A stretch of 64,000 bases of DNA. Source: Candidatus Nomurabacteria bacterium. Its GTDB lineage: Bacteria; Patescibacteriota; Minisyncoccia; Phycocordibacterales; UBA5272. Position numbers and translations under genes: made by a program. The DNA is taken from contig JAQBRF010000004.1 in NCBI GenBank assembly GCA_028286645.1, forward strand, positions 337,536-401,535, given 5' to 3'. The first letter of the stretch is position 1, and each line of letters opens with the position of its first letter. The notes beneath the pieces were generated by a model that saw only the letters and a program-made list of their open reading frames with translations, was not told where the DNA came from and made no database searches. Of this stretch, positions 3,026-23,030 are shown in pieces.

Positions 3026-3268
3026 ATGCTGAAGGCTGACATAGCATTGACGGAAGCAAAAATATGGGCTATGGCTATCGCAGTATGGATTGTCATCGTC
3101 CTGGTCGTTCTCGCGGCGATCGCCTGGCCCGGCTTGTACTTACTCCACAAGATCGCAAATGGCCTCGCCCATCTCAATTGGGTAGCCGCTAGCCCCGCCG
3201 GGATGATGCTTCTCGTATTTCTCGTGGGCATCGTGATCGGCCTTCTCATCAATAGACCACGACAGTGA
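3026..3268 (+). CDS. small GC-rich membrane protein (2 TM); start may be 2924
   Basis: Hydrophobic helices AMAIAVWIVIVLVVLAAIAW and MMLLVFLVGIVIGLL. GAAGGA lies upstream of the ATG at 3026. A rho-independent terminator follows immediately. Confidence 0.45.
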   Translation: MLKADIALTEAKIWAMAIAVWIVIVLVVLAAIAWPGLYLLHKIANGLAHLNWVAASPAGMMLLVFLVGIVIGLLINRPRQ

Positions 3269-3287
3269 AATCACCGCCGTTGTGGAA

Positions 3288-3322
3288 AAAGCGGCGTCAC
3301 CGACGCCGCTTTTTCTTTTTTA
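3288..3322 (+). terminator. rho-independent terminator
   Basis: Hairpin GCGGCGT-caccg-ACGCCGC followed by a TTTTTCTTTTTT run. Confidence 0.7.
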
Positions 3323-3449
3323 TATTTATTAAGCGCAGGGATTTGTTTCCAGATACGAGGCGTAGAATATTTTTATGAGGAGACGTACATGAACGTACGT
3401 TAACGATTAAAAATATTCTGCAACAAAGTATATGGAACAAATAACAAGC

Positions 3450-4010
3450 TTAGAGTCGTTCTTCTACATTATGCCAATCGATGTATGACATAAACGCATT
3501 CACATAATCCGCCCTCTTTAGTCCGTAATCAATCATAAAAGCATGCTCAAATACATCCATTACAAGCAGCGGTGTTGCCCCAGCTAAATGGCCCGTATCA
3601 TGCTCATTAATCCATACGTTAAATAATTTTCCCGTTGATTTATCATGAGCGAGTATCACCCACCCTATTCCTCGAATCATTCCCATCCCTACGAATTCCT
3701 TTTGCCAATTTTCAACCGAACCCCAGCATTCTTCAATTTTTTTCTTAAGAGTTCTGTCGCTTAATTGCACTCCTCCTTTTACCATATTTCCAAAATAAAG
3801 TTCATGAAGTCTCATGCCATTCCATTCCCATCCGAATCTTCGATGAAGTTCATTAAATTCAGGAGATCCTGGTTCACAAGTTTTCATTAAATCAGCCAGC
3901 TTATTCGTATTCGTCACATATCCCTGATAAAGAGTGAAGTGATTATTAAGTAGTGTGTCACTAAATCCTGGAATCCCAAGCAGACTTGAAAAGTCTTTTG
4001 CTGTGTACAT
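3450..4010 (-). CDS. Fe/Mn superoxide dismutase
   Basis: C-terminal DVFEHAFMIDYGLKRADYVNAFMSYIDWHNV, close to the SOD signature D-x-W-E-H-[STA]-[FY]2. Length of 186 aa fits. Confidence 0.8.
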   Translation of the reverse strand: MYTAKDFSSLLGIPGFSDTLLNNHFTLYQGYVTNTNKLADLMKTCEPGSPEFNELHRRFGWEWNGMRLHELYFGNMVKGGVQLSDRTLKKKIEECWGSVENWQKEFVGMGMIRGIGWVILAHDKSTGKLFNVWINEHDTGHLAGATPLLVMDVFEHAFMIDYGLKRADYVNAFMSYIDWHNVEERL

Positions 4011-4040
4011 ATTATTTATATTTAATTTATAATCTTCTCC

Positions 4041-7851: not shown

Positions 7852-9369
7852 ATGCCGAAAGAAGAAAAATCAAAGCTTGTTCCTCGTCAGCCGGTAATAG
7901 CAGTACTTGGGCATGTTGATCATGGAAAATCGTCCCTTCTTGACTACATCCGCAAATCAAACGTCGTAGAGAGTGAGGCTGGCGGTATCACACAAAGAAT
8001 CTCAGCATATGAAGTAGAGCACAAGCTAACAGACGGAAGAATAATGCCGATTACTTTCTTAGACACTCCAGGACATGCGGCATTTCAATCAATGCGCGAA
8101 CGAGGTGTAGAAATTGCCGACTTAGCGATATTGATGGTTTCTGCTGAAGACCAGGTGAAAGCTCAAACACTAGAAGCGTGGAAAACTATTGCTGAAAATA
8201 AACTCCCCTTTGTCGTTGCTATAAATAAGATAGACAAACCAGGTGCGGATATTCAAAAGACAAAAAACTCTCTTGTAGAGAATGGAATTTATATTGAAGG
8301 ATATGGAGGTGAAATTCCCTGCGTTGAAATAAGCGCGAAAACTGGCCAAGGAATAGACTTTCTTCTTGAAACCCTCATTCTTTTAGTTGAAGTAAACGAA
8401 CTTAAAGCCGATTTGTCGAAAAACGCTTCAGGATTTGTACTTGAAAGTTTCGTAGATCAAAAGCGAGGTATTTCTGCCAGCTTAATAATAAAAGATGGAA
8501 CGCTTCCACCAAGCGGGGCGATCTTAGCCGGCACTGCGATGTCGCCTATCAGGATAATAGAAAACTTCCGAGGATTACTCATAAAGGAACCACACGCCGG
8601 CCAGCCTATTAAAGTTACAGGCTTCGATGAATCTCCTATCGCCGGAGCAATTTTCATAAGTTCGAAAGATAAAAAAGAAATAGAAAAAGCTAGAGAAGAA
8701 GCGAAAGGAAATGAAGTTAAGGAAATAGCAGTAGACCCGAAAGTATACAGAAATGCAAAGGTTGTTGTTCCGGTAATAGTTAAAGCTGATTCTCTAGGAA
8801 CGCTTTCAGCTGTTATACAAGAATTAATGAAGAGAGAAACAGAAGATATAAAAATAAAGATAATTCATCAAGGGATAGGAACTATTACTGAAGGAGATTT
8901 AATGTCTGCATCATCTGATGAAAAAGTAGTAGTAATCGGCTTTGGAGTAAAAGTAGAACCGATGGCTCTCGTCCAGGCTGAAAGATTTAATGTGGTTCCA
9001 CAGATATTTGATATCATTTATAAACTATCCGAATGGTTTGATACTGTAATAGAAAGCCGCCTGCCTTACGAAGAAAAGGAAAATATTTTAGGTACATTAA
9101 AGATAATAAGAACCTTCAGCTCTCAAAAAGATAAGCATGTTATCGGGGGCCACGTAGAAACTGGAAAAATAAAAATAGATGCGGTGGTTAAAATTAGTCG
9201 TCGCGGTGTTGAATTGGGAAGAGGAAAAGTTATCGAGCTTCAATCCCAGAAAATTAAGGTTGATCTAGTAAATGAGGGAAATGATTGCGGTCTGCAAGTC
9301 GAAAGTAAAATCGATATGGTTCCCAATGATATATTGACTGCAGTTGAAATTGAGAAGATGAAAATCTAA
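7852..9369 (+). CDS. infB: translation initiation factor IF-2 (short form)
   Basis: G-domain motifs VLGHVDHGKSSLLD, DTPGHAAF and NKIDK. Followed by rbfA. Confidence 0.85.
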   Translation: MPKEEKSKLVPRQPVIAVLGHVDHGKSSLLDYIRKSNVVESEAGGITQRISAYEVEHKLTDGRIMPITFLDTPGHAAFQSMRERGVEIADLAILMVSAEDQVKAQTLEAWKTIAENKLPFVVAINKIDKPGADIQKTKNSLVENGIYIEGYGGEIPCVEISAKTGQGIDFLLETLILLVEVNELKADLSKNASGFVLESFVDQKRGISASLIIKDGTLPPSGAILAGTAMSPIRIIENFRGLLIKEPHAGQPIKVTGFDESPIAGAIFISSKDKKEIEKAREEAKGNEVKEIAVDPKVYRNAKVVVPVIVKADSLGTLSAVIQELMKRETEDIKIKIIHQGIGTITEGDLMSASSDEKVVVIGFGVKVEPMALVQAERFNVVPQIFDIIYKLSEWFDTVIESRLPYEEKENILGTLKIIRTFSSQKDKHVIGGHVETGKIKIDAVVKISRRGVELGRGKVIELQSQKIKVDLVNEGNDCGLQVESKIDMVPNDILTAVEIEKMKI

Positions 9370-9823: not shown

Positions 9824-9917
9824 ACAACTTTTGACAAAAGTAGTATTGTAATGCAGAATATGGATGAGTTTCACTTTGTAACCTACAAAGTGAATTTGAA
9901 CACAAAGGAGTCATTGA

Positions 9918-10742
9918 ATGAATCAGTCTCTGGTGAAAGAAAGCTCGCAAAGTGAATCTCGTGGACTCTCATCGTCGGAGCGGGATACACTCATTCTCCT
10001 TTTCGATCCCGCTGTGGACGATGAGAGAAAGATCGGACTTTCCTTTTCGCTGGGAGAGGGAGCTGCGAAGCTTCATCTCCGCACGGAGCGAAATGAGAAA
10101 GGCCATCCGCTCATCAAGGTGACTGGGGTGGATTCTGGGCACGATTTCAACCCTTTAATGGTCGGAGTGTACTTATTCTTCGCCCACCTTATCTCAGACC
10201 GTGTGCCGGAAAAGATCATGGGGAGACCTTCTCGTCTCAGGAAATATCTGCGCAATCTGTACACGCTTTACGGCGACACCACGCGGCCGCATCTGTCACC
10301 AGTTGCGACTCCTCCAACGAAACCCGAAACCCACAAAAGGATGCCGCTCCCAGTGAAGGCTCCAACGGCGCCGGTAAAAAAAGCGGCGGTCTTGCAGAAA
10401 GCTTCGCGAATTAACAGAAGCGAGTATGCAGAGTTCGGCGAAAGCTCCAACCTGTCGATGCCTGGCAAGCACCAGCTACTGGCAAGAGGCGAGAATGGGT
10501 ATGCATATGTCCGAAGCGACGGGAGCATCGTCACTCTGGATGGCGCGGATGAAGGGAATACGCTTTACGGGTTAACGATCGGATGCAAGATATCCGTTCG
10601 AGAGCTCTCGAATCGAAACCCCGCTTCTGTGTTCGATGCAGAGCCGCGCCGTGGGCTGGAAATCGGCAAGTTCTACAAGTACCTGTGTCAATTCCATCCG
10701 GAAGTCCCCATTGAGCGCCCAAAGCTTCCGTGGGAAAAATAG
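9918..10742 (+). CDS. GC-rich hypothetical protein (274 aa)
   Basis: AAAGGAG RBS 7 nt upstream. GC-clamped terminator immediately downstream. No recognisable motif. Confidence 0.6.
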   Translation: MNQSLVKESSQSESRGLSSSERDTLILLFDPAVDDERKIGLSFSLGEGAAKLHLRTERNEKGHPLIKVTGVDSGHDFNPLMVGVYLFFAHLISDRVPEKIMGRPSRLRKYLRNLYTLYGDTTRPHLSPVATPPTKPETHKRMPLPVKAPTAPVKKAAVLQKASRINRSEYAEFGESSNLSMPGKHQLLARGENGYAYVRSDGSIVTLDGADEGNTLYGLTIGCKISVRELSNRNPASVFDAEPRRGLEIGKFYKYLCQFHPEVPIERPKLPWEK

Positions 10743-10767
10743 GGTCGAGCTTTTTCACTTTAGCAAT

Positions 10768-10800
10768 CCCCCGGCATCATGTCGGGGCTTTTTCTTTTCT
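10768..10800 (+). terminator. rho-independent terminator
   Basis: CCCCGGCatcatGTCGGGG followed by CTTTTTCTTTTCT. Confidence 0.7.
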
Positions 10801-11029
10801 CAAATAAAAAACACCCATCGCGGGTATCTTTTACTTTATAAGTGAAACCTCTCTGTTTTTAACGAAGTGCTCGGCATTATTATACGACTGAATCAATAAA
10901 AAATTTGGGTCATTCGTATTAACTTTACCGGTTTGAAGCATCTTCTTACTTACCTAGACGGTAAAGAATCATAAATCTTACATCTCTCGCAAAAAGCCAA
11001 GAATTAAGATATAATCACTTCTGTTCACA

Positions 11030-11110
11030 CCTGCCCCGGTGGCGAAATTGGCAACAGAACAAATGCGCTAAGTGCGTCTACCAATTTCGTAAGTACATAG
11101 GGAGGTGAGA
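11030..11110 (+). pseudogene. tRNA-Leu 5' fragment plus fold-back (pseudo-tRNA / att remnant)
   Basis: 'tgccccggtggcgaaattggcaacag' copies tRNA positions 1-26. It is followed by 'agtgcgtctaccaatttcg', the inverse of the D-arm. No complete cloverleaf forms. Confidence 0.5.
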
Positions 11111-11137
11111 TAAAAGAGAGTAAAAATTAAATATTTG

Positions 11138-11221
11138 CCCAGGTGGCGAAATTGGTAGACGCACTTGCCTTAGGAGCAAGCGCCGCAAGGCATGAAGGTT
11201 CAAGTCCTTTCCTGGGCACCT
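11138..11221 (+). tRNA. tRNA-Leu (anticodon TAG)
   Basis: Acceptor GCCCAGG/CCTGGGC. Anticodon stem-loop ACTTGC-CTTAGGA-GCAAG. Long variable arm (type II). Confidence 0.85.
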
Positions 11222-12825
11222 AATAATACATTTTGGTCCGCAAGCGTATCAAAAGGTGTATTAAACGTTGATTTGTATACCTTTTTATCTTTTATATAAA
11301 AGTTCAAGAAGATCTTTTTAAGGAAGAAGTCTAGTTCTTCCATATTCTTGATAGAAGCTAGTGTTTTAGGCATATTTTCCATTAGTTCAATGAACTTTTC
11401 AAAAGTTAAAATGCTTACTTTATCATTTTCGTAAATTATCCTAGTTTTCTTCTCGTCTTCTTCTATTAAATTAATATCTCTTTCAGCTTTTTCTAGATCT
11501 CCTCTATAAAACTTCTTAATGTTTTCTGCTTCGTCGCTTAAAAGGAGATTCTTTGTCTTCTCTATCTTTTCTTCGGCTCTAACCTTTTCGGTTCGCAACG
11601 TCAAAAGTTTTTCCTTTGCTTGATTAATACGGTCTGAATGTACTTTTTTTATTTCCTTTGTATAGTGCTCATAACTTCTTTTACTAGAAAATGGTTTCTT
11701 TTCTAAAAGGTGGTATATGTAATCTAAAATTACTTTAGCTCTTATAGATTTTCCATATCTAGGACAATCACGATTATCACACCTATAGTAAAAATATCTT
11801 ATTGTGCCTTTTTTAGTTTTTTTAGCAGTTATTCCTGCTTGCAAAGATTCTCCACATTCGCAAATTACAGCGTCTCTTAAAAGACTTGCTATTATGTCCT
11901 CTCCTTTTCTATAGTTTCGAGCAAGTTTAAGTAAATCTTTATTTCCAGATAGTCTATTAATCTGCATAAATTCTTCTGTGGTTACCATAGGAATAAAATC
12001 GTAATATTCCATTAAGTTAACTACATTTTCTCCATATTGGAGTACCCCAGTATAAACAGGATCTCTTAAAATATATTGGACCCTCTGTTTGTTCATTGTA
12101 AAGAATCTTTCTGACGATTCCGTATTGCTATGAAAATATTTATTACTTATAAGATACTCAGAAATCTGGTCCAAAGTTTTGCCTTCCAATCTCATTTGGA
12201 AGCCTTGCTTCAGTAATACATAATTATTTCCGTCTGGACGTAAATAACCGTTTTTATCTTTTATATAACCGTGTTTAGAGATATTTACATATTTACCTTC
12301 TGCAAGACTTAACCTATTCCCTCTTTTAACATTGACACTTAATTTATCTGAATATTCCTTTGAGAGAGCAAACATAATTCCTAGGAGCAACTTACCGCTT
12401 GCGTCATTACTAAATGTAAAACTTACAAACTTTAAATCTTTGATTATGTCCTTATCAACTAGATCTATAACCTCTCCCGCCTCTTTCATATTTCTTGCTA
12501 GTCTGTCCGGGTGCCACGCGATAACCCCGTCATATTTACTAGCACTTATATCAAGAAGCATTTTAGTAAACTTAGGCCTTATTCCTGGCTCTTTAGCACT
12601 TTCTGCTTCCTCTATTATATCTGCAAACTTAAGTTCATTCTTTCTTGCGAAATCCCTGCATTCCGTGATTTGATCCTCAATGGAACGTATTTGTTTACCG
12701 GTCTCGTCGGTTGACTTTCTTACGTAAATAACATACTTATACTTTTCGGGAGTATATGCCACTTTGTCGTTCTGGGCCGATTTTAGTAACTCCAAAAGTT
12801 CTTGTGGAGAAGTAGGATTAAACAT
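11200..12825 (-). CDS. large serine recombinase (integrase)
   Basis: N-terminal resolvase domain YVIYVRKSTDETGKQIRSIEDQ with the catalytic Ser. 541 aa, with a Cys-containing zinc-ribbon region and a coiled-coil C-terminus. The 3' end overlaps the tRNA-Leu 3' end. Confidence 0.8.
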   Translation of the reverse strand: MFNPTSPQELLELLKSAQNDKVAYTPEKYKYVIYVRKSTDETGKQIRSIEDQITECRDFARKNELKFADIIEEAESAKEPGIRPKFTKMLLDISASKYDGVIAWHPDRLARNMKEAGEVIDLVDKDIIKDLKFVSFTFSNDASGKLLLGIMFALSKEYSDKLSVNVKRGNRLSLAEGKYVNISKHGYIKDKNGYLRPDGNNYVLLKQGFQMRLEGKTLDQISEYLISNKYFHSNTESSERFFTMNKQRVQYILRDPVYTGVLQYGENVVNLMEYYDFIPMVTTEEFMQINRLSGNKDLLKLARNYRKGEDIIASLLRDAVICECGESLQAGITAKKTKKGTIRYFYYRCDNRDCPRYGKSIRAKVILDYIYHLLEKKPFSSKRSYEHYTKEIKKVHSDRINQAKEKLLTLRTEKVRAEEKIEKTKNLLLSDEAENIKKFYRGDLEKAERDINLIEEDEKKTRIIYENDKVSILTFEKFIELMENMPKTLASIKNMEELDFFLKKIFLNFYIKDKKVYKSTFNTPFDTLADQNVLLGAQERT

Positions 12826-12854
12826 ATACAGATTATAACCTTCTAATGAAGAAA

Positions 12855-13148
12855 TTACCTTCTAAATAATTCCGGGAATCTATTAAAAAGGTCCTTATCT
12901 TCTTCGTCTTTTTTGATTGCTTTAAAAGAAAGTGAGACTAGACTTCCTATAATCTTGGCTTGATCTGGTGTTATATGATTTTTCCTAAGATTATTAATTG
13001 TATCCTCTAGTAAGACTAAGGCGTCTGGCACATTTGTAACTCTTAGGGATTTCAACGGCCGGTAAGTGATTCTCGGTTTAAGAGCCTTTCCACCTTTTAT
13101 AATTGCCTCTCTTTTTAATTCAGCCACCTCGGGATTATGAGTAAACAA
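12855..13148 (-). CDS. hypothetical small protein co-oriented with recombinase
   Basis: 97-aa ORF lying 30 nt upstream of the recombinase. Confidence 0.4.
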   Translation of the reverse strand: MFTHNPEVAELKREAIIKGGKALKPRITYRPLKSLRVTNVPDALVLLEDTINNLRKNHITPDQAKIIGSLVSLSFKAIKKDEEDKDLFNRFPELFRR

Positions 13149-13560
13149 AACTCAAAGTTAATCATTGCGTTGGCATTACATTGTTCGTTATTAGATTTTT
13201 TGAATATACATTTCATAAGTTATTGCTTGTAAATTAGCTTTTAAGATCTGAATAAATTGGTATGATTTGAGGTCATAATCAAACGAAAAACGGACCTGAA
13301 CTTACTTATCCCGTGAGATAGCTTGTTCAGACCCGTGAATCTGTCTAGCTTTTTATAACTAGCTTTGTTTTCCCTGGACCATATCTTAAGGCTTTTTCAA
13401 GATTAGGGTCGATCAGTAAAACTATTTGATTATCTTAAGTGTAGCTTATATTCATATCTTGTAAATTGCTTATATTTCTTACGAGAGAATAATAAGATAT
13501 ACTTGCATTACAACTAAATATATTAGTGGCCTAACCCCTAAGCAATTAGAGTATGGTCCA

Positions 13561-13700
13561 AATCGCGACAAACATAAAAAACCTATCATTAGGGCGTTTG
13601 TCGCGGTATACCGGGAAACTGGTATACAGGCCTTCGGGCCTTCCTAGTGGTAGGCTTTTTCTGTCTCCACTTAGATTTATAAATTAAACGCGACAAACAA
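13561..13700 (+). promoter_or_regulatory. three copies of 'cgcgacaaac' (two direct, one inverted) up to the start codon
   Basis: aatCGCGACAAACat ... gGCGTTTGTCGCGg ... aaaCGCGACAAACaatttATG. A UUCG-tetraloop hairpin (aggccTTCGggcct) lies in the same region. Confidence 0.4.
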
Positions 13701-13703
13701 TTT

Positions 13704-14135
13704 ATGGAAAAGCACGCTTCTCTTATTAAGAAAGTCTCAATATATGTCATTATTGGCTCTATAGCAGTCATAGCCCTAATTATCTCTATAAGTAGTGGAG
13801 AAGGTAGTACTTCAAGTAAAACAGCGACTACAACCTCAACAATAGCCACACGGCCTAAAATTGGAGAGGAAGGATACATTAAAACAACATTGAAATATCC
13901 TTTCTTAGCTGTAGATAGAGAATCCTACGATCAGATAATGAAATCAGCAGTAGCAAAGGACGATCGAGGAATTGCTGAAGTTATAGCCGGTGGGGGAGGT
14001 TTCTTTGTGGACAATGGTACTAAAGTCCTTGTCCTAGACCAAGAGTTTGGATCTAGGAAAGTGCGGGTGCTTGAAGGTGATCAAATTAATAGGACTGGCT
14101 GGTTAGTAATGGAGTGGATCTCAAAGGAGAAATAG
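13704..14135 (+). CDS. hypothetical membrane-anchored protein with Thr-rich linker
   Basis: N-terminal TM helix, TATTTSTIAT linker, GGGGFF motif. Confidence 0.5.
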   Translation: MEKHASLIKKVSIYVIIGSIAVIALIISISSGEGSTSSKTATTTSTIATRPKIGEEGYIKTTLKYPFLAVDRESYDQIMKSAVAKDDRGIAEVIAGGGGFFVDNGTKVLVLDQEFGSRKVRVLEGDQINRTGWLVMEWISKEK

Positions 14136-14171
14136 TCTTCGTAACTTTGTGTTTACTTGCTCGGTCTAGTT

Positions 14172-14948
14172 TTAGATCTTTACGAGAATAAAACCTATTT
14201 TTTCTCTCACGATTCCGTCATACTTACCTTCTACTAAGTTTTCGAATACTGGCCACGGCTCATAATATGTATAGCTAAAGCCATTTGCACCGTGATTAGT
14301 ATTCTGTTTAGTGGTTTCACTTAGATTTGGATACGCCAAAATAAACGCCATTTCTTCAATTACGTACTTAATAGCAATAGGTACTTTGCTGTTAATGTCT
14401 TCTCCTTCTTGGAGGCGATTCTTTAGGACCTTAGCCGTTGTAGTATTTATATCTTTATGAAACTCTAGATTTTCTTCATATAAGGTCATTAGACATTCAT
14501 ACTCTTTTAAATATGTCTCGTCCTTATAAATGTCTACCCAATCTAAGAAAATAACCTTACTCTTATTTTCTGGTTCTTCTATTTTTATTCTCTCTAAAGC
14601 TGCAAGACAATGATTCCTTAATCGATTCCTATCTAATCTTGCTTCTCTTAATACTTTGTCTTCAGAATATCCTTTAGCACGAAAATTATGCTTAGCTGGA
14701 CCGTCGGTAAAGAAAACTGAGACTCTATTTGAGAAGTTGAGTGAAAAACGCAGCATTCTATATATATTTTCTCTATTGTAATATCCATTGTTTAGGCAAA
14801 TTGCTAAAAGTAAATCTTGTTTTCTATTCAGAAACTCCACACCTCTCTTTCTTATAGGTAACCCTTCGTCATTTAGAATAACCACTGCTTGCCAGTTATG
14901 ATTTTCAACTCTCTTATTTAATCCAGCTATTTCATTTTTTAGGTCCAT
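14172..14948 (-). CDS. tRNA-dependent cyclodipeptide synthase (CDPS) homolog
   Basis: LLLAICLNNGYYNRENIYRML aligns gap-free to the CDPS pocket motif (YvmC [21 protein letters not shown]; AlbC GISAGNSYF). RVSVFFTDGPAKHN aligns to SVSVLLAGHEAAN. AIKYVIEEMAFILAYP aligns to the CDPS Y-x-x-x-E motif (AVEYVIAELPFFIGAP). Comparator sequences are from memory. Confidence 0.65.
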   Translation of the reverse strand: MDLKNEIAGLNKRVENHNWQAVVILNDEGLPIRKRGVEFLNRKQDLLLAICLNNGYYNRENIYRMLRFSLNFSNRVSVFFTDGPAKHNFRAKGYSEDKVLREARLDRNRLRNHCLAALERIKIEEPENKSKVIFLDWVDIYKDETYLKEYECLMTLYEENLEFHKDINTTTAKVLKNRLQEGEDINSKVPIAIKYVIEEMAFILAYPNLSETTKQNTNHGANGFSYTYYEPWPVFENLVEGKYDGIVREKIGFILVKI

Positions 14949-14950
14949 AT

Positions 14951-15388
14951 TTATCTTGCCATTACCACTCTTGGTTCTCCGTCCCCAAAGTAATCTTCTT
15001 TTCTCGATTCAATTTTAAATCCTAGAGATTCATAAAGGCTAATTGCTTTAAAGTTATCTGGGTGTGTTACAAGATCTATCCTTTTTACTTCTCCTATTTC
15101 CTTTAAGATATAATCCATAGCTTGCCTTGCTATTCCTTGTCTCTGAAACTCTGGAAGGATTAATATTCCACTTATATAAGCGTGGTCCGGCGATTTCATT
15201 TCATACATTACGTCACCTGCTATCTTACTGTCTTTCTCAATAATATAAACCGGTCCGTCATTTATGGCTTTTATCCATTCGGATTCCTCAAGCATTGCAG
15301 AATAAGTTTTAGATCCTACAATACTTTGCTCTATAGAGATAAGAGTAGGAATATCTTCAATTATTGCTTTTTTATATTTAAGTTCCAT
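14951..15388 (-). CDS. GNAT family N-acetyltransferase
   Basis: Motif A YISGILILPEFQRQGIARQAMDYIL and the AISLYESLGFK tail. 145 aa. Ends 3 nt before the CDPS start. Confidence 0.8.
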   Translation of the reverse strand: MELKYKKAIIEDIPTLISIEQSIVGSKTYSAMLEESEWIKAINDGPVYIIEKDSKIAGDVMYEMKSPDHAYISGILILPEFQRQGIARQAMDYILKEIGEVKRIDLVTHPDNFKAISLYESLGFKIESRKEDYFGDGEPRVVMAR

Positions 15389-15390
15389 AT

Positions 15391-15870
15391 CTAAATTATA
15401 CTCTTATATTTTTTCATAAACTTCTGTCTATCTTGGGGAGTATCAAACCAAAAGATTGTATAGTACTTTTTCTTTCCGCTTCTTATTAATGCTTCGTGTC
15501 TATGGGTGCCGTCTCTTACCGAAAGAATAGGCCAAGGGCGCGGGTTAGCAATTAACGCCGGGACTTCCCACCCTTTTTTTATTTCTTTTACCATAGCATT
15601 CACCCTTTTGTTAAACTTCTTTAAAGATTCTGGATATTCCATTCCTTCTTCTGGGCCACAACAACGCACTAACTCTTTTAAAGGAAAGTTAATTGGCCCC
15701 ACCCAGGAGTGATACCCTTCTTCTTTACGAAGTTTCAGTCCTCTTGCCATATTTTTATTGATTCCTGGACCGTGGAGAAAGGCAAAGACCCATTCGTCTA
15801 GCCTCCCTTTCTTTGTATAGGCTTTGAGTTCTTTGATAGAGAAATCTAACTTTTGTTCTGTTTTTGTCAT
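15391..15870 (-). CDS. ParB/sulfiredoxin-fold domain protein
   Basis: C-terminal ILSVRDGTHRHEALIRSG matches the ParB/Srx DGxHRxxA core. Ends 3 nt before the GNAT start. Confidence 0.45.
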   Translation of the reverse strand: MTKTEQKLDFSIKELKAYTKKGRLDEWVFAFLHGPGINKNMARGLKLRKEEGYHSWVGPINFPLKELVRCCGPEEGMEYPESLKKFNKRVNAMVKEIKKGWEVPALIANPRPWPILSVRDGTHRHEALIRSGKKKYYTIFWFDTPQDRQKFMKKYKSII

Positions 15871-15938
15871 TAAAGAAGTATACCAGTTACGTTTTAACCA
15901 CTTAAAAGGTAATAAATTAAGGGTGTATAATTAGTATT

Positions 15939-16187
15939 ATGACCACTATCAGAGAAGAACGTATTTTAAGGAGAAAGTTCTATGTTTTAGATAAAATTGC
16001 TAAACAGTTGGATCAAGTACCTGGAACGAATATTATATATTACACTCAAGATCCTACAGAGTACTTAATGAACGGCCTCCAATATAATGAGTTAATCCCA
16101 GGACCAGCAGACGAAGTTAAGATTCTAGAACTCTTTAATTCAGAGGATATTCTAAAAATTGAAAGTAATTACGACGAATATGAGTAG
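15939..16187 (+). CDS. small protein, putative antitoxin partner of PIN protein
   Basis: 82 aa. Lies immediately upstream of the PIN gene. A TATAAT sits 9 nt before its ATG. Confidence 0.35.
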   Translation: MTTIREERILRRKFYVLDKIAKQLDQVPGTNIIYYTQDPTEYLMNGLQYNELIPGPADEVKILELFNSEDILKIESNYDEYE

Positions 16188-16246
16188 AAGAGTACTAAGA
16201 TTAAAAATAAATAGAAGTAACTTTGAGTTATTATATAGTGAAATTA

Positions 16247-16788
16247 TGAAGAAGTTGTCCTTCATAGATACTAAAATACGGATTTATATTGATACAAATA
16301 TTTTTGGGAGAGCGATAGACGGTAAAATGGACCAGACAAACACAGAGTCAATTGAACGCATTGTTTCTAAGAAGAATATTAGCCTATATACGTCTGAAAA
16401 AACCAGACAAGAAATTAAAAATAATCCAAACAAGGGCGCGCAATCCTATTTACAATTTATTGTTAATTTAGTTACTGTTATACCGGAAGAACATTTCATA
16501 AAAGAAACCTCTGTAAGTATAGGTGAAGCGACACTAGGTTCTGTAACTATTGGAGGTACAACTACACAAGAGGATAAAACGTTTACACAACTTTCAGTTA
16601 TTTTCCAACAGGATGACGCAGAGCATATATTTCAAGCTATAAAAAGTAACGCACAGTATTTTATTACTCTTGATCAGAAAACGATTATCAACAAAAGAGA
16701 CGAATACAATAAACTTGGTTATCAAACAAGGCTGGTCACCCCTTTAGATCTTGAAAAAATACTATTTGCAATAGAGGATAACAGCTAA
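16247..16788 (+). CDS. PIN-domain protein (VapC-like nuclease with insertion)
   Basis: IYIDTNIFGRAID is a canonical PIN N-terminus. Later acidic residues at DDAEHIFQAI and FITLDQK. Start chosen at MKKLSF. Confidence 0.55.
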
Positions 16789-16792
16789 ATTA

Positions 16793-17338
16793 CTAGTAGG
16801 TTTTTACGTCGTAATCTCCTGTATCTTTATTATATGTAGTATGGATACTTTTTACTTGCTTATTAGAAACTTTTGCCATTATGTTTAAGAACTTTATTAG
16901 GTTAATTGCTATTAAATATTCATTCTTCTTAAAATCAGAGGTGAAATAAAGATAGGTTAGTTTACTCTTACTGTGGATAGTGTGGAATGTGTAAGAATGA
17001 ATAATAAGATTTAAAAGAAGTGACAGCTTTATGCTTATCTTTTCTGGTTTTTTAAAATCAAAAAGTTCTGTAAAATCGAATACCGGACCACGTCTCTTGG
17101 AGTTTCTTCTATGTCTTATTACAGATACCTTTGTATCTATTACTTTATCGGGTATTTTACGTGCTTCTAAGAGTTTTCTAATAGAGAACGTTATGATAAA
17201 AACCTTTATTTCAACTTTAGAAATGATTTCGTCTAGTTTGTCGTCTTCTAAGCTATTAATGTTAATTTTTTGTAACTTCTTTATGTAAGAAATGTCTCTT
17301 TTTATAATTTGCCTCCAATAGTAAGATTCAAAAGCCAT
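16793..17338 (-). CDS. hypothetical protein, very AT-rich
   Basis: 181-aa ORF, Lys/Ile-rich. Confidence 0.4.
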   Translation of the reverse strand: MAFESYYWRQIIKRDISYIKKLQKININSLEDDKLDEIISKVEIKVFIITFSIRKLLEARKIPDKVIDTKVSVIRHRRNSKRRGPVFDFTELFDFKKPEKISIKLSLLLNLIIHSYTFHTIHSKSKLTYLYFTSDFKKNEYLIAINLIKFLNIMAKVSNKQVKSIHTTYNKDTGDYDVKTY

Positions 17339-17965
17339 TTCGTGTCGTATTATATATAACTATAAGTTCAATACATTCACCCCTATTAAATAGTAATTAT
17401 TTCTTCCTGCCCAAAGTAACAATATCGCCATTATTTGCAATGACTTGTTGCTGTGGCTTATTATGTGGTACTTTAGGTAAACCTTGTACGACGTCGGTAA
17501 AATTATCTTTTTTCATATATACTAGAAGTATATCAAAAACGTATAGCCAAACCAGCCTTTTTCCTATCTACGCTTATAAAATCAGACATTATGCTATTCC
17601 AATCTCTAAACTTCTCAACGTTATTTGACACTAAATCAAAAAGTTCAAGTGCTGTATGATAGCGGGCACAGCAAAAAAAACCATAAGGTCTTTTGTTTTG
17701 CTATGCCTAGGAAGTAAGTGGCCTACGCCACTTAAGGAAGGACTTAAAAGTCCGGAGTATTTTTTTGGAAACTCCTAAAAATGACGAGGAGCAATCGGCA
17801 AACTTTTCTAAGCGACGGCGAGAAAAGATTTGTCGGAAAGATTCCTTTCCTAGATACACCAACATTTCTTCCAATAATATGCTAAGCAAATGATTTAGCT
17901 TAACATAAGAACAGCAAGAATTGGACTATAATTTTTTATGAGAAAATATAACTTTAAATCACTCC

Positions 17966-17994
17966 TTGACTTTCTATATAAGTTATGTTACAAT
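17966..17994 (+). promoter_or_regulatory. near-consensus sigma70 promoter
   Basis: TTGACT, 17-nt spacer, TACAAT. Then AAAGGAG RBS and the ATG at 18030. Confidence 0.65.
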
Positions 17995-18029
17995 GTAGAT
18001 AACCTAGTACTTACACGAAAGGAGCACTT

Positions 18030-18299
18030 ATGGACTCAGACTTAATTGAAAAGACACGACGGGAAACGGCCAGCCAAGTTCTGGCAATTACAACCGTGGT
18101 GTTACAAGCAATGTCAGCCATGACCAATCTCGGAAGCATTACTCCCTACTGGATGATGACAATAGGGTTTGCAACCGCCACAGCAGTTATGTGGATTAGG
18201 CGCAGCGCGAAAGGAGATGGAGGTTATTCTCTCCCCGGCGCAGTGATATGGCCCATCACCACACTTCTCATATTCCTGCATGGCATAGGCAGTCTTTAG
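18030..18299 (+). CDS. small membrane protein (2 TM)
   Basis: 89 aa, two hydrophobic helices. Strong promoter and RBS. Confidence 0.55.
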   Translation: MDSDLIEKTRRETASQVLAITTVVLQAMSAMTNLGSITPYWMMTIGFATATAVMWIRRSAKGDGGYSLPGAVIWPITTLLIFLHGIGSL

Positions 18300-18366
18300 C
18301 AGATGCAAGTAAGTGACCCCAGAGACTTTGGCAACTTTGGGGCCATTTTTGTATTATCATAAGTAA

Positions 18367-19053
18367 ATGAAGCAAACAAAACCACAAATTCTCTTTGAAA
18401 ATAACCAGTTAGTCGTATTAGACAAGCCCTCTGGCATGGTAATCCATCCTTTTGATTTTTCTAATGAACCAACTGTTTTAGATTTTTTGCAGGAAAATTA
18501 TCTGGAGGTTTTTAACATTGAAAATAAGTTTACACTGCAAGATAAAAGAGAAATAAATCTGGGCGGCATCGTTCACAAGTTAGATAGAGACACATCTGGC
18601 ATATTAGTGGTGGCAAGGACCCAACATGCCTTTGATGAATTAAAAAAACAATTTAGAAACCATGAAATAAACAAGGAATATATCGCTCTAGTTAATGGGA
18701 TTTTGAAAGATGACCAGATTCTGATCGACGCCCCTCTTGGAAGGTCAAAGAAAGATTTCAAACAATCAACTCAACCAGAAAATTTAAGAGGAGAAATGCG
18801 AGAAGCGATCACCGTACTTGAAGTTATAAAAAGAAATGAGAATACTACTTTAGTAAAGCTTATCCCCCAAACCGGAAGAACTCATCAATTGCGCGCACAC
18901 ATGGCGTCAATCGGACACCCCATTGTAGGAGATAAGTCATACGGAAGTAAGATAGAGTCGGAAAGAATTATGCTTCATGCAGAAAAGATTTCGTTTGAAT
19001 TAAATAATCAAAAAAATAACTTCGAATCCCAACTGCCTCAGGACTTTAAATAA
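18367..19053 (+). CDS. RluA-family pseudouridine synthase
   Basis: HKLDRDTSGILVVARTQHAFDELKKQF contains the catalytic Asp motif of RluA/RsuA. Confidence 0.8.
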   Translation: MKQTKPQILFENNQLVVLDKPSGMVIHPFDFSNEPTVLDFLQENYLEVFNIENKFTLQDKREINLGGIVHKLDRDTSGILVVARTQHAFDELKKQFRNHEINKEYIALVNGILKDDQILIDAPLGRSKKDFKQSTQPENLRGEMREAITVLEVIKRNENTTLVKLIPQTGRTHQLRAHMASIGHPIVGDKSYGSKIESERIMLHAEKISFELNNQKNNFESQLPQDFK

Positions 19054-19083
19054 AAACGCGGAGGCCGAAGCCTCTCGCGTATT

Positions 19084-19500
19084 TCACACTTTCCTCGCGT
19101 CTTTCTCGATGGGGAACATTTCGAGAATTTTGGAGCGAAGAAAAAAGTACTGAAAAAAGTTCTGAAACCCCATCTCTCGGTAGGGTCTCTCTTCGGAGGG
19201 CGAATAGTTGCCTCCCCAGGCAACCAGCGTTTTATCGCGCATTCGGATATTTATACACTCCGCTTTTGAGACTCCTTGTCCGGCGCTGTTATGAAGAATC
19301 ACTAAATCGAGCTCGTGGTCTTCGGCTGTTATCGTTCTTACCGCCTGCGCAACTTCGGGAGTGTATCGTGCCAAATGGTCTACAACTCCCAAGTACTCCT
19401 CCGCCGTCACATCGAGAAAAATCCCTTTTTCCCGCATCGCTTCCACGAGAGGGGGAAGGTTATTACGACTACCAAGTAAAAGCGTTTTAACTCTGCGCAT
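19084..19500 (-). CDS. hypothetical protein, possible Rossmann-like (DprA/LOG-like) fold
   Basis: LLLGSRNNLPPLV and DLVILHNSAGQG loosely resemble SLOG-superfamily motifs. Moderately GC-rich. Confidence 0.35.
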   Translation of the reverse strand: MRRVKTLLLGSRNNLPPLVEAMREKGIFLDVTAEEYLGVVDHLARYTPEVAQAVRTITAEDHELDLVILHNSAGQGVSKAECINIRMRDKTLVAWGGNYSPSEERPYREMGFQNFFQYFFLRSKILEMFPIEKDARKV

Positions 19501-19570
19501 GTAATTTCCTCAATTTTTGAGCTTTCGCCCATTCACTTAAAACACTAAAGGAATTGACTCTTATAGTCAA

Positions 19571-20167
19571 CTACTTCTCTTTTCTTCTGCCGATTAAAAA
19601 ATAAAACACGGTACCGATTAATGCCCCTATTGTATCCATAAGCATATCCTTCTGAGCGTCCCAAATATCTCCTTGAGACCCTAGGACTGCAATTCCTGCG
19701 CCAGGATCCGAACTAACTGCATATTGCCATTCAAATATTTCATAAAATGCAGCCACCGCCGGAATAATCATAAAGCCTGCTAAATATGCGAACCATTTTT
19801 TATTTACCCATCTGTACTTAATGGCAGATTCAATAATAGGATACGCATAAAACCCCACCGTTGCATGAGCTACCCTGTCATACATATTTCTTTCGAAACC
19901 GAAAAAATTATCAAACCAATCAAATGGAACAGCGGCAAAAGTATAATGCCCCCCAATGGTGTGCATAAATATAAGGATACTCATTAATAAATATGCAATA
20001 TTTGAAAATCTTATTTTTGCAATATATAAACCTATGATAACCGCAACAATTAGAAGAACTGTTAAATTCTCCACCCACCAAGTATGCCTATCTATCGGAT
20101 GAATCCCCAAGGCGACAAATTCTACTGCATAAATTAGCAAAAGAAGATGCGGGAAATATTTTTTCAT
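19571..20167 (-). CDS. polytopic membrane protein, paralog A
   Basis: About 45-50% identical to ORF 21442-22071, for example YFPHLLLLIY, FDWFDNFFGF and KKWFA. Confidence 0.6.
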   Translation of the reverse strand: MKKYFPHLLLLIYAVEFVALGIHPIDRHTWWVENLTVLLIVAVIIGLYIAKIRFSNIAYLLMSILIFMHTIGGHYTFAAVPFDWFDNFFGFERNMYDRVAHATVGFYAYPIIESAIKYRWVNKKWFAYLAGFMIIPAVAAFYEIFEWQYAVSSDPGAGIAVLGSQGDIWDAQKDMLMDTIGALIGTVFYFLIGRRKEK

Positions 20168-20218
20168 TGGGATAAGTGTAGCATAAAAGAAAATGCCGGG
20201 ATTTCTCCCGGCGGTAAT

Positions 20219-20692
20219 TCAAGCCGCATCGCCGCATTGGGCTTTGGCAGCTTCCACTGTTCGCTGAAATTCTTCGCGACTCATGTCATCGCCAACAAGC
20301 CCTGGAGCCCACTCGAACGGCTTAGGGTCAGCCGCTAGGACCGCGTTGAATTCTTCCCTGGTCAGTATCTGGTTGGGAATACTTTCTGACCGTTCGAGTT
20401 CGTTTACCGCTGGATACGCGATGCTGAGCTCGTGGTTCAGAAAAAAATGCATCGAGCTCACCCGTGCCTTTCTCAGCGTCATGAGTTTCCATACATCGGT
20501 GATAAGCTCGAGATCCGGAGTAAGCACTACGTTTCTCGTCCCTTTGAATAAGGCGGGGAAAGTCCCCATGAGCCCATGCTCGAGCTCCAGGAAGTAGACC
20601 ACCGTAGGCACGAACCCTGCCACTTTGCCGTCCTGCAATTCTTTCAGTGTTGCTGGAACTTTACTTCTGAGATCATCGTTTCGTATGCCCAT
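20219..20692 (-). CDS. GC-rich hypothetical protein
   Basis: GGAGGAAAA RBS before the ATG (MGIRNDDL). The ORF-track start at 20767 lies upstream of the RBS. Confidence 0.5.
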   Translation of the reverse strand: MGIRNDDLRSKVPATLKELQDGKVAGFVPTVVYFLELEHGLMGTFPALFKGTRNVVLTPDLELITDVWKLMTLRKARVSSMHFFLNHELSIAYPAVNELERSESIPNQILTREEFNAVLAADPKPFEWAPGLVGDDMSREEFQRTVEAAKAQCGDAA

Positions 20693-20848
20693 TTTTCCTC
20701 CGCACGTAACGTCTCGGGAGATATCCTGAGACCGTTTGATGCGGACGAATCTGCTCCATCTAACCATTTTAAGTATTTTTAGTCAATCTATTGATATGGG
20801 TGATACTCCGACAAATCTTTTCACTCAATTAAAAATAGATTTTTAATT

Positions 20849-21237
20849 TGTGCCCAGGGTAACATGAGAATTAGAGACTCGGCTACAAGTTCCTCCTCGC
20901 CGCCTCTCGTCGGACTCGCAGCCCGCGGCTCGCGATTTCTAGTGCTTTAGAAATAACGCTCCGCCCTTCGAGTCCCGACGCATAACACGCAGGTGTTATG
21001 CTCCCTGGGCACCAATTAAAAATCCGCTAAGGCGGTATTTTTAATTGGTGCCCAAGGCGAGACTCGGTCACAAAACTTCTCGTCGTAAACTCCTCGATAA
21101 AGTTTCGCAAAGTCGACTTATAATTAGTCGACACCTGTAGACGGCCCATTCGAGTCTCCGCAAGCCAAGCAGTTGGCTTGCTTACTACTGACACTGTGAA
21201 GTAAAAAACAGGAATTCTTTTCCTGTTTTTTACTTCA
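20849..21237 (-). mobile_element. array of miniature elements (family E + family F) with reiterated tRNA-Leu(TAA) 3'-end fragments
   Basis: tRNA 3'-like fragments 'ccgagtct...cctgggcac' at 20849-20881 and 21047-21066. Family E body 20882-20998 (gggcggagcgttat core). Long palindrome 21008-21050. Family F body 21067-21194. Hairpin 21195-21237. Confidence 0.6.
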
Positions 21238-21238
21238 T

Positions 21239-21320
21239 GTGCCCAGGGCGAGACTCGAACTCGCACGCGCTACGCGCTGAGGATTTTAAGTCCTCTATGT
21301 CTACCATTCCATCACCCGGG
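21239..21320 (-). tRNA. tRNA-Leu (anticodon TAA)
   Basis: Revcomp GCCCGGGTGATGGAATGGTAGACATAGAGGACTTAAAATCCTC... with a long variable arm. Anticodon loop CUUAAAA. Confidence 0.85.
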
Positions 21321-21325
21321 CAGGT

Positions 21326-22852: not shown

Positions 22853-23030
22853 CTAAATTACAAAGTAATTTGCAGGAGAAAGCAAACTGCTTTGCTTTCG
22901 GGAGTCGAAAGGCGGAGCGTTATTTATTCTGCTGAATAAATAACGTTCCGCGGCCAGCGAAAAAGTTTTCTGTCGAGAAGACTTTATTTGTCGGAGACAT
23001 TCCCGCCCATACCTCTAAATTCTAATATCC
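22853..23030 (+). mobile_element. family E miniature element + diverged duplicate of tRNA-Cys 3' end
   Basis: Body holds 'tcgaaaggcggagcgttatttattc' and a 16-bp hairpin. 'cattcccgcccatacctctaaatt' at 22999-23030 mirrors tRNA-Cys 3' 'actcccgcctgcacctctaaatt'. Confidence 0.6.

Follow-up and report, generated by a model that had tools for sequence, protein, structure and literature searches.

We found that the window (the whole 64,000-nucleotide stretch of DNA analyzed here) probably contains a 6.45-kb integrative element that was inserted by a large serine recombinase (LSR) at the very 3' terminus of tRNA-Leu(UAG) (window ~11220-17669) and that carries its attP inside its own recombinase gene. 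A sequence-only reading of this DNA had proposed an LSR island at the same tRNA, with limits at 11030 and 21013. Its integration core is upheld by empty target sites and by differing cargo among relatives; its limits are not.

The island and its target tRNA

The features of the two ends are as follows:
11033-11051: 5' pseudo-tRNA fragment (18/19 nt match)
11137..11220, + strand: tRNA-Leu(TAG) (ARAGORN; Rfam tRNA, 58.6 bits)
11196-11220: host half-site of attL (B arm), the tRNA T-arm and acceptor 3' strand (sequence)
11198-11205: T-loop motif GTTCAAGT in the real tRNA (sequence)
11200..12825, - strand: LSR, integrated truncated form, 541 aa (Pfam, phrog_95)
11214..11219, + strand: attL core GGGCAC, common to attR (sequence)
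17397..17516, - strand: conserved 39-aa ORF (MKKDNFTDVVQGLP...), 17 nt downstream of the exon
17536..17670, - strand: detached recombinase 3' end ("C-terminal exon"), 45 codons, start-less, CARYHTALELFDLVSNNVEKFRDWNSIMSDFISVDRKKAGLAIRF; stop codon at 17533-17535
17642..17669, + strand: element half-site of attR (P arm), a pseudo tRNA 3' end, AGTTCAAGTGCTGTATGATAGCGGGCAC
17643-17650: GTTCAAGT in the attR pseudo-copy, with its GGGCAC core at 17664-17669
17671..17705, + strand: host flank (B' arm), hairpin agcaaaaaaaacc...ggtcttttgttttgct (sequence, GC)
21239-21321, - strand: tRNA-Leu(TAA)

As the earlier reading stated, the 541-aa recombinase gene ends inside the tRNA: its last 21 nt lie within the tRNA 3' end, where its last six codons (GAQERT) and its TGA stop (11200-11202) are antisense tRNA. 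As that reading had recommended, we compared related genomes, and we found empty tRNA sites in two relatives. Specifically, in L159 the ATG of a pseudouridine synthase gene follows 13 nt after the tRNA, and L139 likewise has no recombinase there, so that the insertion is polymorphic in presence and absence. Moreover, among metagenome contigs sharing a 41-mer of this tRNA (n=44), this recombinase abutting the tRNA was present in 1 and absent from 43. The composition is heterogeneous, as had been noted before: the GC content of 11221-17669 is 0.336 compared to 0.413 for the rest of the window, which places the island below all 180 other 6.4-kb windows, and by GC the host-like sequence starts again at 17671.

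The far junction lies at 17664-17669, at about 17,669 rather than 21,013. The T-loop motif of the pseudo-copy is 21 nt from the core there, versus 16 nt in the real tRNA (+5). A serine integrase needs no 12-13-nt direct repeat, and an attP-type mimic of the tRNA end is present instead. Judging from the sequence, the exact crossover would fall within or adjoining the GGGCAC core, and the hairpin that follows may be read as the original tRNA terminator. The elements of L002 and L005 share conserved sequence with 17343-17701, and in L002 the ATG of the pseudouridine synthase gene abuts the pseudo-tRNA end in the way it abuts the real tRNA in L159. Read by eye, dyad symmetry of attP is present in the window and in L002 and absent in L005, and the P' half-site of attP and the host flank B' share no convincing common motif. 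We saw no excised circle, no fused gene in a single element and no empty site in the same strain, and Logan contig L001 passes unbroken through 17670. Neither a direct repeat of the tRNA 3' end longer than 10 nt nor a tyrosine integrase within 11-21 kb was found; an Islander-type tRNA island is ruled out by the lack of such an integrase and of a long identical tRNA 3' direct repeat.

The wider island of 11030-21013, with the 5' pseudo-tRNA fragment as one limit and a direct repeat of 12-13 nt at 21001-21013 ('tccctgggcacca') as the other, is contradicted by these observations and very improbable. An exact 10-nt match (CCTGGGCACC) at 21004-21013 agrees with it, as does Logan contig L001, which spans 11183-21103. 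However, those 10 nt are all that is exact relative to the tRNA-Leu(TAG) end (BLAST E 0.85-3.6), and the repeat matches tRNA-Leu(TAA) equally well (CCCTGGGCAC). It pairs with 20838-20859 and with 21037-21057 as an arm of inverted repeats of 21-22 nt and sits among copies resembling the tRNA-Leu(TAA) 3' end that cluster beside that tRNA, which is the origin that the sequence-only reading had itself named as fatal to its far junction. The 5' fragment is present where that reading saw it, but we rejected it as a junction because the same upstream structure occurs in L139 and L166, both of which lack the recombinase; an inverted exact 20-nt copy of tRNA positions 11-30, at 11070-11089, had been missed. 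In addition, the conserved attP-type junction at 17642-17669 stands against the wider limits, the sequence of 17670-21013 has a host-like GC content (0.426), and the pseudouridine synthase and DUF2238 genes (18367-20167) flank the same tRNA in recombinase-free relatives. The small membrane protein (18030-18299) and the DUF2238 paralogs, previously counted as island content, are therefore outside the corrected island and not cargo.

The recombinase and its detached exon

The recombinase has the domains Resolvase, Recombinase and Zn_ribbon_recom. Its catalytic domain (PF00239, E 6.3e-22, residues 32-179) identifies it as a serine recombinase, and R36-K37-S38-T39-D40 are invariant across 17 homologs. 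PF07508 matches with E 4e-08 and the phrog_95 integrase family with E 1.5e-56. The match to PF13408 (20.2 bits) is below the cut-off of 25.3, yet the cysteines C322, C324, C349 and C354 are all invariant, and the zinc ribbon probably contains a coiled-coil insert.

The detached exon begins at the GGGCAC core, and the codon phase across the core (GTGCCC on the coding strand) is the same as that of the recombinase. In L005, a stop codon lies immediately before the exon. Its frame is under purifying selection, with a dN/dS of 0.20-0.36 compared to about 1-2.4 in the other two frames. Fused reading frames occur in two tandem arrays. In that of L043, recombinase A continues in frame into exon B, and this 52-aa exon was found detached and 100% identical in L023; in L032, a 621-codon ORF is fused to an exon. 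The 39-aa ORF downstream of the exon also occurs in the elements of L002 and L005 and partly in L109.

A family of related elements

We surveyed 80 genome loci with recombinase homologs (30-72% identity). The island belongs to a very large family of LSR elements in Patescibacteria that target the 3' ends of many tRNA genes. At these loci, the recombinase ORF terminates within a convergent tRNA gene in 58 cases and continues right across it in 4, and at least 13 tRNA species are used. The split layout with a detached exon was found in about 22 relatives at no fewer than 7 tRNA species, and recombinase and tRNA are arranged likewise in the IMG/VR loci L200 and L201. The pseudo-acceptor covaries with the target tRNA (GTGCCC, GTGGGC, GTCG, GCGG, GTAGC, GCGGAGGA, GTGGGCCT). 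In LSRs, the motif bound by the zinc-ribbon domain is 5 bp closer to the center in attB than in attP (PMC3783163). We observed the same 5-bp shift for the one half-site examined: the offset of GAAC is 24 in the element copy and 19 in the tRNA in 12 out of 12 elements (L010 by eye), and GAAC lies at the attP-type offset in 10 further exon copies. Exceptions are L070, L024 and L039, where the far end resembles a plain 3' fragment of a tRNA rather than an attP-type copy. The family elements are only about 3-8.5 kb long, without phage or conjugation genes.

Other island contents

Between the recombinase and the exon module, the island contains:
12855..13148, - strand: 97-aa ORF, upstream of the recombinase gene; matches no family, unconserved in relatives
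13528..13642, + strand: LOOT RNA (Rfam RF03000), 65.3 bits versus a gathering score of 46.4
13704..14135, + strand: 143-aa ORF; has weak homologs in the elements of L002 and L005
14172..15870, - strand: cargo operon of three genes
14172-14948, - strand: cyclodipeptide synthase (CDPS; Pfam CDPS, 8.6e-18)
14951-15388, - strand: GNAT acetyltransferase (Acetyltransf_1, 1.7e-16)
15391-15870, - strand: 159-aa protein, weak ParB-like match (phrog_1033, E 0.004)
15939..16788, + strand: 82-aa ORF and 209-aa PIN-like protein (PIN_3, E 0.0013, below Pfam thresholds)
16793..17338, - strand: 181-aa ORFan

Domain matches thus place the CDPS, GNAT and PIN-like genes where they had been read from the sequence. 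The LOOT RNA also occurs in the related elements of L002, L005, L008 and L066; the cargo varies among relatives.

Alternative explanations

We weighed two further explanations. One holds that the recombinase is a resident, vertically inherited gene beside a hotspot of gene turnover, not (or no longer) the integrase of a mobile unit, and that the piece at the far end is a separate micro-gene or DNA site. The recombinase is indeed about as conserved as IF-2 and RbfA (69-72% identity to relatives), its gene-order context is unchanged in L002 and L005 despite different cargo, and no circle was observed; this conservation and shared synteny also fit long residence. Yet the identities of the recombinase among three relatives are star-like (72/69/70%), compared to 75/73/85% for IF-2, which indicates that the recombinase does not track its host. 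Moreover, a long-resident gene accounts poorly for the many related tRNA-Leu(TAG) sites without it, for a family spread over so many tRNA species, for a pseudo-tRNA arm with attP spacing that covaries with the target tRNA, for a start-less exon under purifying selection in the recombinase phase, and for the low GC content of the island. We consider this explanation unlikely.

The other keeps the LSR island with its corrected limits and takes the 45-codon piece for a constrained DNA site (an attP arm with relics) or a decaying remnant, with no functional part in the recombinase. The exon has no known-domain match, its first ~10 codons overlap the att half-site and are thus constrained at the DNA level, and no fused gene was found in a single element. 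Protein database searches likewise returned no recombinase-plus-exon protein, which is weak evidence since a representative library would hide one. However, codons 14-45 are outside any plausible 25-bp half-site, and their dN/dS is 0.23-0.31 in two out of three pairwise comparisons (the third was not computable, as synonymous sites were saturated). In addition, exon homologs share their end position, with a fixed length (45-46 codons in the Parcubacteria type, 51-52 in the Saccharibacteria type), a conserved motif and the same stop position, they invariably share the phase of the recombinase, and tandem arrays contain fused ORFs. We regard a mere DNA site or remnant as quite improbable.

Proposed mechanism

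We propose that attP lies within the 3' end of the recombinase gene and that one of its half-sites mimics the acceptor 3' strand and the T-loop of the targeted tRNA. In this mimic, the T-loop-like motif is 5 bp more distant from the crossover than its counterpart in the tRNA itself, in keeping with the known attP/attB geometry of LSRs. Integration would leave the tRNA intact and cut the recombinase gene: the integrated body (11200-12825) now reads six codons of antisense tRNA (GAQERT) and stops in the T-loop, and the last ~43-45 codons lie start-less at the opposite end (17536-17670). Excision, if the element is still active today as we infer, would rejoin the two parts into a ~580-aa protein, followed by the conserved 39-aa ORF, and the predicted attP junction would join ...GTATGATAGCGGGCAC to CTAATAATACATTTTGG...

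The long (episomal) and short (integrated) recombinases may differ in activity or stability, which would amount to integration-dependent control, by analogy with the integration-dependent immunity of mycobacteriophages. We speculate, with more doubt than confidence, that the tail swap acts as a state sensor, that recognition of the T-loop eases hopping between tRNAs, and that the LOOT RNA and the 39-aa ORF belong to a control module. If so, the difference between a long circle-encoded and a short chromosome-encoded recombinase would let the topology of the element set the direction of recombination without a separate directionality factor, and the universal T-loop as distal motif would let the family switch tRNA species via few acceptor-stem contacts.

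Comparison with known systems

LSRs catalyze recombination between attP and attB at a 2-bp crossover, and excision needs a directionality factor. The island recombinase resembles known LSRs (Listeria A118/LI, phiC31, Bxb1, SPbeta SprA, TnpX, CcrAB) in the order of its resolvase catalytic domain, recombinase domain and zinc ribbon with a predicted coiled-coil insert. As with the LSRs of phages and mobile elements, the integrase gene adjoins attP, the identical core is short, and the 5-bp shift is present. Unlike these named LSRs, the family targets the 3' ends of many tRNA species, with the universal T-loop apparently acting as the distal motif; its hosts are Patescibacteria, and attP lies within the coding region of the integrase itself, so that integration alters the C-terminus of the protein.

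An attP within the integrase gene is also found in SSV1-type archaeal integrases, which target tRNA genes and whose gene is split by integration; these enzymes belong to the tyrosine recombinases, are encoded by archaeal viruses and plasmids, and are disrupted by the split. The island shares with them an attP inside the integrase ORF and gene parts at opposite ends of the element. It is not a member of this type, since its enzyme is a serine rather than a tyrosine recombinase, which loses only a tail of ~45 aa while its catalytic and DNA-binding body remains complete.

The mycobacteriophages BPs and Brujita (clusters G, N and P) have their attP within the 3' end of a gene and an attB that overlaps a tRNA gene. 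On integration, the protein loses a C-terminal segment and takes its stop codon from the junction, so that viral and prophage forms of it exist (PMC9262239). In these phages, it is the repressor gene that is split, a tyrosine recombinase acts as the integrase, and the part lost is an ssrA-like degradation tag. Unlike this system, the island splits the integrase itself, and the exon tails end in ...IRF, VVF or VKL rather than in LAA-type tags; we therefore do not assign it to integration-dependent immunity.

Finally, tRNA-targeting islands with tyrosine integrases (Islander-type islands and tycheposons) likewise sit at the tRNA 3' end, have the integrase beside the tRNA, carry accessory or defence-like cargo and end in a tRNA-like repeat (PMC4383910; bioRxiv 10.1101/2020.12.28.424599). 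In these islands, an identical core of 25 bp or more restores the tRNA, whereas the identity is limited to 4-8 nt in the island described here, whose far end has an attP-type mimic of shifted spacing instead.

A recombinase-bearing island at tRNA-Leu(TAG)

The sequence-only reading placed an island at 11030-21013, with a large serine recombinase gene overlapping the 3' end of tRNA-Leu(TAG). The window comes from a MAG of Candidatus Nomurabacteria (Parcubacteria/Patescibacteria), and a protein recorded under that name is 100% identical to its recombinase. We confirmed that this is a true island and that the overlap is real. The 541-aa ORF contains Resolvase, Recombinase and zinc-ribbon domains and matches the phage integrase family phrog_95, and its last six codons (GGT GCC CAG GAA AGG ACT, encoding GAQERT) together with the TGA stop are antisense to the tRNA over its T-arm and the 3' strand of its acceptor stem. 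A second ORF, of 543 aa (46538-48169), was considered as another recombinase and rejected, as it is DnaG primase. The main features are:

11033-11051, 5' pseudo-tRNA fragment
11137-11220, plus strand, tRNA-Leu(TAG)
11200-12825, minus strand, 541-aa large serine recombinase
13528-13642, plus strand, LOOT RNA (RF03000, an orphan motif typed as sRNA)
17397-17516, conserved 39-aa ORF
17670 to 17536, minus strand, 45-codon frame without a start codon
17642-17669, pseudo-copy of the tRNA end
17671-17705, hairpin
18367-20167, pseudouridine synthase (PsiU) and DUF2238 genes
21239-21321, minus strand, tRNA-Leu(TAA)

The island extends over about 11220-17669, and the far boundary at 21013 had been placed too distant. 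Two related elements, L002 and L005, are found in two MAGs, have recombinases 72% and 69% identical to that of the window, likewise stop within tRNA-Leu(TAG), and share the neighbourhood of the window (IF-2/RbfA ... DprA/TopA). Their cargo varies: L002 carries TIR and caspase-like proteins, whereas L005 has three small ORFs. We also searched metagenome contigs for unoccupied sites, using a scan with a 41-nt tRNA piece and tblastn with window proteins, and this comparison with relatives lacking the island recovered two. In L159 (IF-2 73% identical), the PsiU ATG lies 13 nt after the tRNA with no recombinase between, and in L139 the recombinase is also absent at the tRNA. Because such unoccupied sites exist in relatives without the recombinase, PsiU and DUF2238 are host genes. 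Among the 44 contigs that extend for 1.7 kb or more beyond the tRNA on its downstream side, this recombinase adjoins it in only one (L109). Composition agrees with the shorter limit: GC is 0.336 over 11221-17669, below all 180 other 6.4-kb windows, and 0.426 over 17670-21013. We set aside the idea that the island is an inversion system, which the block in L002, opposite to that in L005 and the window, might evoke, as the att arms are direct and empty sites exist.

The far junction was located through conservation between related elements, after BLAST with the tRNA had given only chance-level matches in the window, L002 and L005. Specifically, nucleotide-level conservation with L002 and L005 extends over 17343-17701 (tblastx and alignment), and this block terminates in AGTTCAAGTGCTGTATGATAGCGGGCAC (17642-17669), which is a pseudo-copy of GGTTCAAGTCCTTTCCTGGGCAC, the end of the tRNA. 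In L002 the pseudo-tRNA end directly abuts the PsiU ATG, like the real tRNA in the empty site L159. The hairpin directly right of the window's pseudo-tRNA end can be read as the original terminator of tRNA-Leu(TAG).

The repeat previously taken as the far junction, tccctgggcacca at 21001-21013, does not hold up in that role. It has 10 exact nucleotides in common with tRNA-Leu(TAG) (E 0.85-3.6), matches tRNA-Leu(TAA) equally well, and is one arm of 21-22-nt inverted repeats (20838-20859, 21003-21024 and 21037-21057) that form a cluster of copies resembling the tRNA-Leu(TAA) 3' end and adjoining that gene. The three copies (ATTTTTAATTNGTGCCCARGG; 20838-21068) alternate in orientation, and each amounts to one half of a terminator joined to the end of tRNA-Leu(TAA) in antisense. 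The GC-rich stretch of about 150 nt that separates them occurs again downstream of tRNA-Cys (22895-23008) and also in contig L109 (2794-2936). An Rfam search of the repeat region gave no match. Other elements at tRNA-Leu(TAA) could have left these repeats as scars, or they could represent a small repeat of structured or MITE-like type.

The 5' side of the tRNA

The 5' pseudo-tRNA fragment noted earlier is real (18/19 nt) but is not an island junction, as it is also present at sites without the recombinase. After it, at 11070-11089, tRNA positions 11-30 recur as an inverted copy that is exact over 20 nt. Together, the pseudo-copy of positions 1-19 and the inverted D-arm region (20/20 nt) form a 47-nt imperfect palindrome (11033-11089), about 50-100 nt upstream of the tRNA, which is kept in two relatives without the recombinase (L139, about 9240-9300; L166, about 703-716). 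The predicted stability of the hairpin at 11030-11095 is not unusual (z = -0.39). Upstream 5' tRNA fragments also occur at the target tRNAs of four other loci (L033, L036, L049 and L056). Disruption of a resident tRNA with an element-borne replacement would require a 3' remainder at the far end; we found none in these four loci or in the 64-kb window and rejected this explanation.

Between RbfA and the tRNA lies a 274-aa ORFan (9918-10742, GC 0.49), and the segment bearing it (9885-10982) forms a separate Logan contig of 1,098 nt. Gene content here was compared with L002 and L005, in which the genes are unrelated; in L139 and L159 the interval is far longer, at about 3.5-3.8 kb. These differences point to a second variable spot, 5' of tRNA-Leu(TAG). 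The orientation of the tRNA relative to PsiU also varies between one set of loci (L096, L107, L109, L113, L133, L135, L138, L149 and L166) and another (the window, L005, L139 and L159), the two being divergent neighbours in some genomes and the tRNA lying upstream of the gene in others. In L002 the whole block is inverted and transposed. Rearrangements near these tRNA genes are recurrent.

A probable detached exon of the recombinase at the opposite end

The start-less 45-codon frame begins exactly at the pseudo-acceptor end, and in L005 a stop codon immediately precedes it. Its products are as follows.

Protein encoded by the detached frame
Window: CARYHTALELFDLVSNNVEKFRDWNSIMSDFISVDRKKAGLAIRF
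L002: GARYYTALELFAVLSEEVSGFQEWNHIMSEFISSERKKAVLEVVF
L005: CARSYSALELFDVIANDVTKFTEWNNAMSDFIRLDRKKAVLVVRF

We found dN/dS values of 0.20-0.36 in this frame, versus about 1-2.4 in the two other frames. An exhaustive search of 1.84 billion proteins returned three further copies, all conserved from (G/C)A to an identical stop position. Over the shared core, the codon phase is the same in the exon and the recombinase (GGT GCC C.. and TGT GCC C..), and therefore the joined element ends would encode ...NVLLGA followed by RYHTALELF..., in a protein of about 580 aa. The conserved 39-aa ORF lies 17 nt after the exon end, and hence after the reconstructed long form. Exons also lie on the recombinase strand 1.2-6.8 kb upstream of its start in five other loci (L008, L009, L010, L025 and L066). 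A version of different sequence, 51-52 codons long, is present in the Saccharibacteria-type members L023, L024, L027, L030, L032, L033, L036, L037, L053, L054 and L071, and four loci hold single candidates (L017, L048, L057 and L065). Exon positions give element sizes of about 3-8.5 kb. Pfam and PHROG searches gave no additional match for the exon or the fused protein. A shortened copy (CARRHTALELFETMINNIDLFVEY) lies downstream of tRNA-Leu(TAG) at 2201-2386 of L138, a contig without a recombinase, and is suggestive of an element in decay.

The start of the detached frame always copies the acceptor-stem antisense of the tRNA abutted by the same recombinase.

Exon start for each target tRNA
Leu-TAG: GTGCCC
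Another Leu-TAG: GTGGGC
Pro: GTCG
Asp: GCGG
Glu: GTAGC
Ser: GCGGAGGA
Met: GTGGGCCT

The T-loop-like GAAC lies at offset 24 in the element copy and 19 in the tRNA, a shift of exactly +5 bp that was present in 12/12 elements (L010 judged by eye), and another 10 exon copies show it as well; from motif start to discriminator base there are 13 nt in the tRNA and 18 nt in the element copy. The zinc-ribbon-domain motif of large serine recombinases is shifted by 5 bp between attP and attB (Rutherford et al., PMC3783163). The tRNA T-arm and acceptor end would therefore be the B half-site and the pseudo-tRNA end the P half-site, with GTTCAAGT, the T-loop motif, as the putative zinc-ribbon-domain motif. 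The predicted attP junction joins AAAGTTCAAGTGCTGTATGATAGCGGGCAC to CTAATAATACATTTTGGTCCGCAAGC and the predicted attB junction GCATGAAGGTTCAAGTCCTTTCCTGGGCAC to AGCAAAAAAAACCATAAGGTCTTTTGTTTTGC; crossover would fall in or adjoin the 4-8-nt shared core. The tRNA remains intact. We looked for a convincing motif in the other two half-sites and found none. The reconstructed attP showed dyad symmetry at 10/14 positions in the window, 9/14 in L002 and 5/14 in L005, which was judged not significant. The attP of this family is located inside the integrase gene and mimics a tRNA 3' end. Elements can accordingly be delimited by a convergent tRNA at one end and, at the other, a pseudo-tRNA end with GAAC at +5 followed by a start-less frame of 45-52 codons.

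Fused forms and mobility

Tandem arrays of two elements at one tRNA-Pro were observed (L043, 6441-13451; L023; L032, about 2360-4380), with the upstream recombinase fused in frame to the exon of the downstream element. In L043, recombinase A runs uninterrupted into the 52-aa exon of element B, with attP-type spacing at the junction. L023 holds element B alone, at 91% nucleotide identity, and there an exon 100% identical to this one lies detached, 2.3 kb upstream of recombinase B. In L032, a 621-codon ORF is fused to an exon. Two tandem arrays show that the recombinase and exon frames fit, and the arrays imply non-canonical site pairing (attP with attL or attR) or co-integrates. We found no circle of a single element. 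An exhaustive protein search for a fused long recombinase with the 45-aa query returned only short ORF calls, and the fused C-terminal query returned one IS-interrupted fragment of the integrated form. In L199 (Logan SRR23617274), a C-terminal fragment of a family recombinase (…GAQERT) directly follows an IS-type DDE_3 transposase pair, and therefore apparently derives from an element interrupted by an insertion sequence.

Mobility is supported by the sporadic occupation of the site (1/44), differing cargo among relatives, the many tRNA targets, selection on an exon useful only in the excised state, and recombinase distances (72/69/70%) that do not track the host (IF-2 75/73/85%). Caution is nevertheless warranted, as the recombinase is as conserved as core genes and Logan contig L001 (window 11183-21103) crosses 17670 unbroken.

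A widespread family in Patescibacteria

More than 1,100 proteins in the collection searched are homologs of the recombinase, and nearly all measure 540-550 aa. Species-representative genomes gave at least 591 matches, and the label is Patescibacteria for nearly all of these. Among 80 fetched loci, 58 recombinase ORFs stop within a convergent tRNA gene and 4 read through; most of the remaining loci are cut by contig ends. Target tRNAs are Leu, Val, Pro, Asp, Ala, Glu, Gly, Gln, Ile, His, Lys, Met and Ser, and the aligned C-terminal tails (GAQERT, GARERT, GGRGGT etc.) are antisense tRNA. Longer homologs (P0023, P0036 and others) were rejected as fused forms, being N-terminal extensions or read-through into tRNAs without an in-frame stop.

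The window's island carries the CDPS-GNAT-159-aa operon, a PIN-like protein paired with an 82-aa ORF, and several ORFans; PADLOC gave no match on this cargo. In L002 (8640-9994), the TIR-like and caspase-like (Peptidase_C14) proteins adjoin the recombinase and are candidate defence genes carried as cargo. The family appears to be a main carrier of genes of accessory and defence type (CDPS, PIN-like, TIR, caspase-like) in Patescibacteria, whose genomes are tiny and whose mobile elements are poorly known. LOOT RNA is also present in related elements.

LOOT RNA in related elements
L002: 7986-8105
L005: 9236-9362
L008: 8811-8929
L066: 9670-9796

In these and in the window it always lies upstream of the recombinase, 0.2-1.9 kb from its start, and may be on either strand. 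Given this constant nearness, it looks like a regular component of the element, which gives the orphan motif a genomic home.

Significance and relation to known systems

The long and short recombinase forms may differ in activity or stability, a tentative proposal drawn from analogy. If true, the family's serine integrase would alter its own C-terminus when it integrates, and directionality would be controlled in a novel manner. These natural serine integrases, with predictable tRNA-templated att sites, seem easy to retarget and are of interest for genome engineering and for the genetics of hard-to-culture Patescibacteria. In the literature searched, whose coverage is incomplete, we found no description of the recombinase family or of a tRNA-mimicking attP layout. 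Archaeal SSV1-type integrase genes also split on integration into tRNA genes. The closest documented logic to the tail swap is the integration-dependent immunity of mycobacteriophages (PMC9262239). In contrast to both, the split gene here is a serine recombinase, and only its family-specific tail is exchanged.
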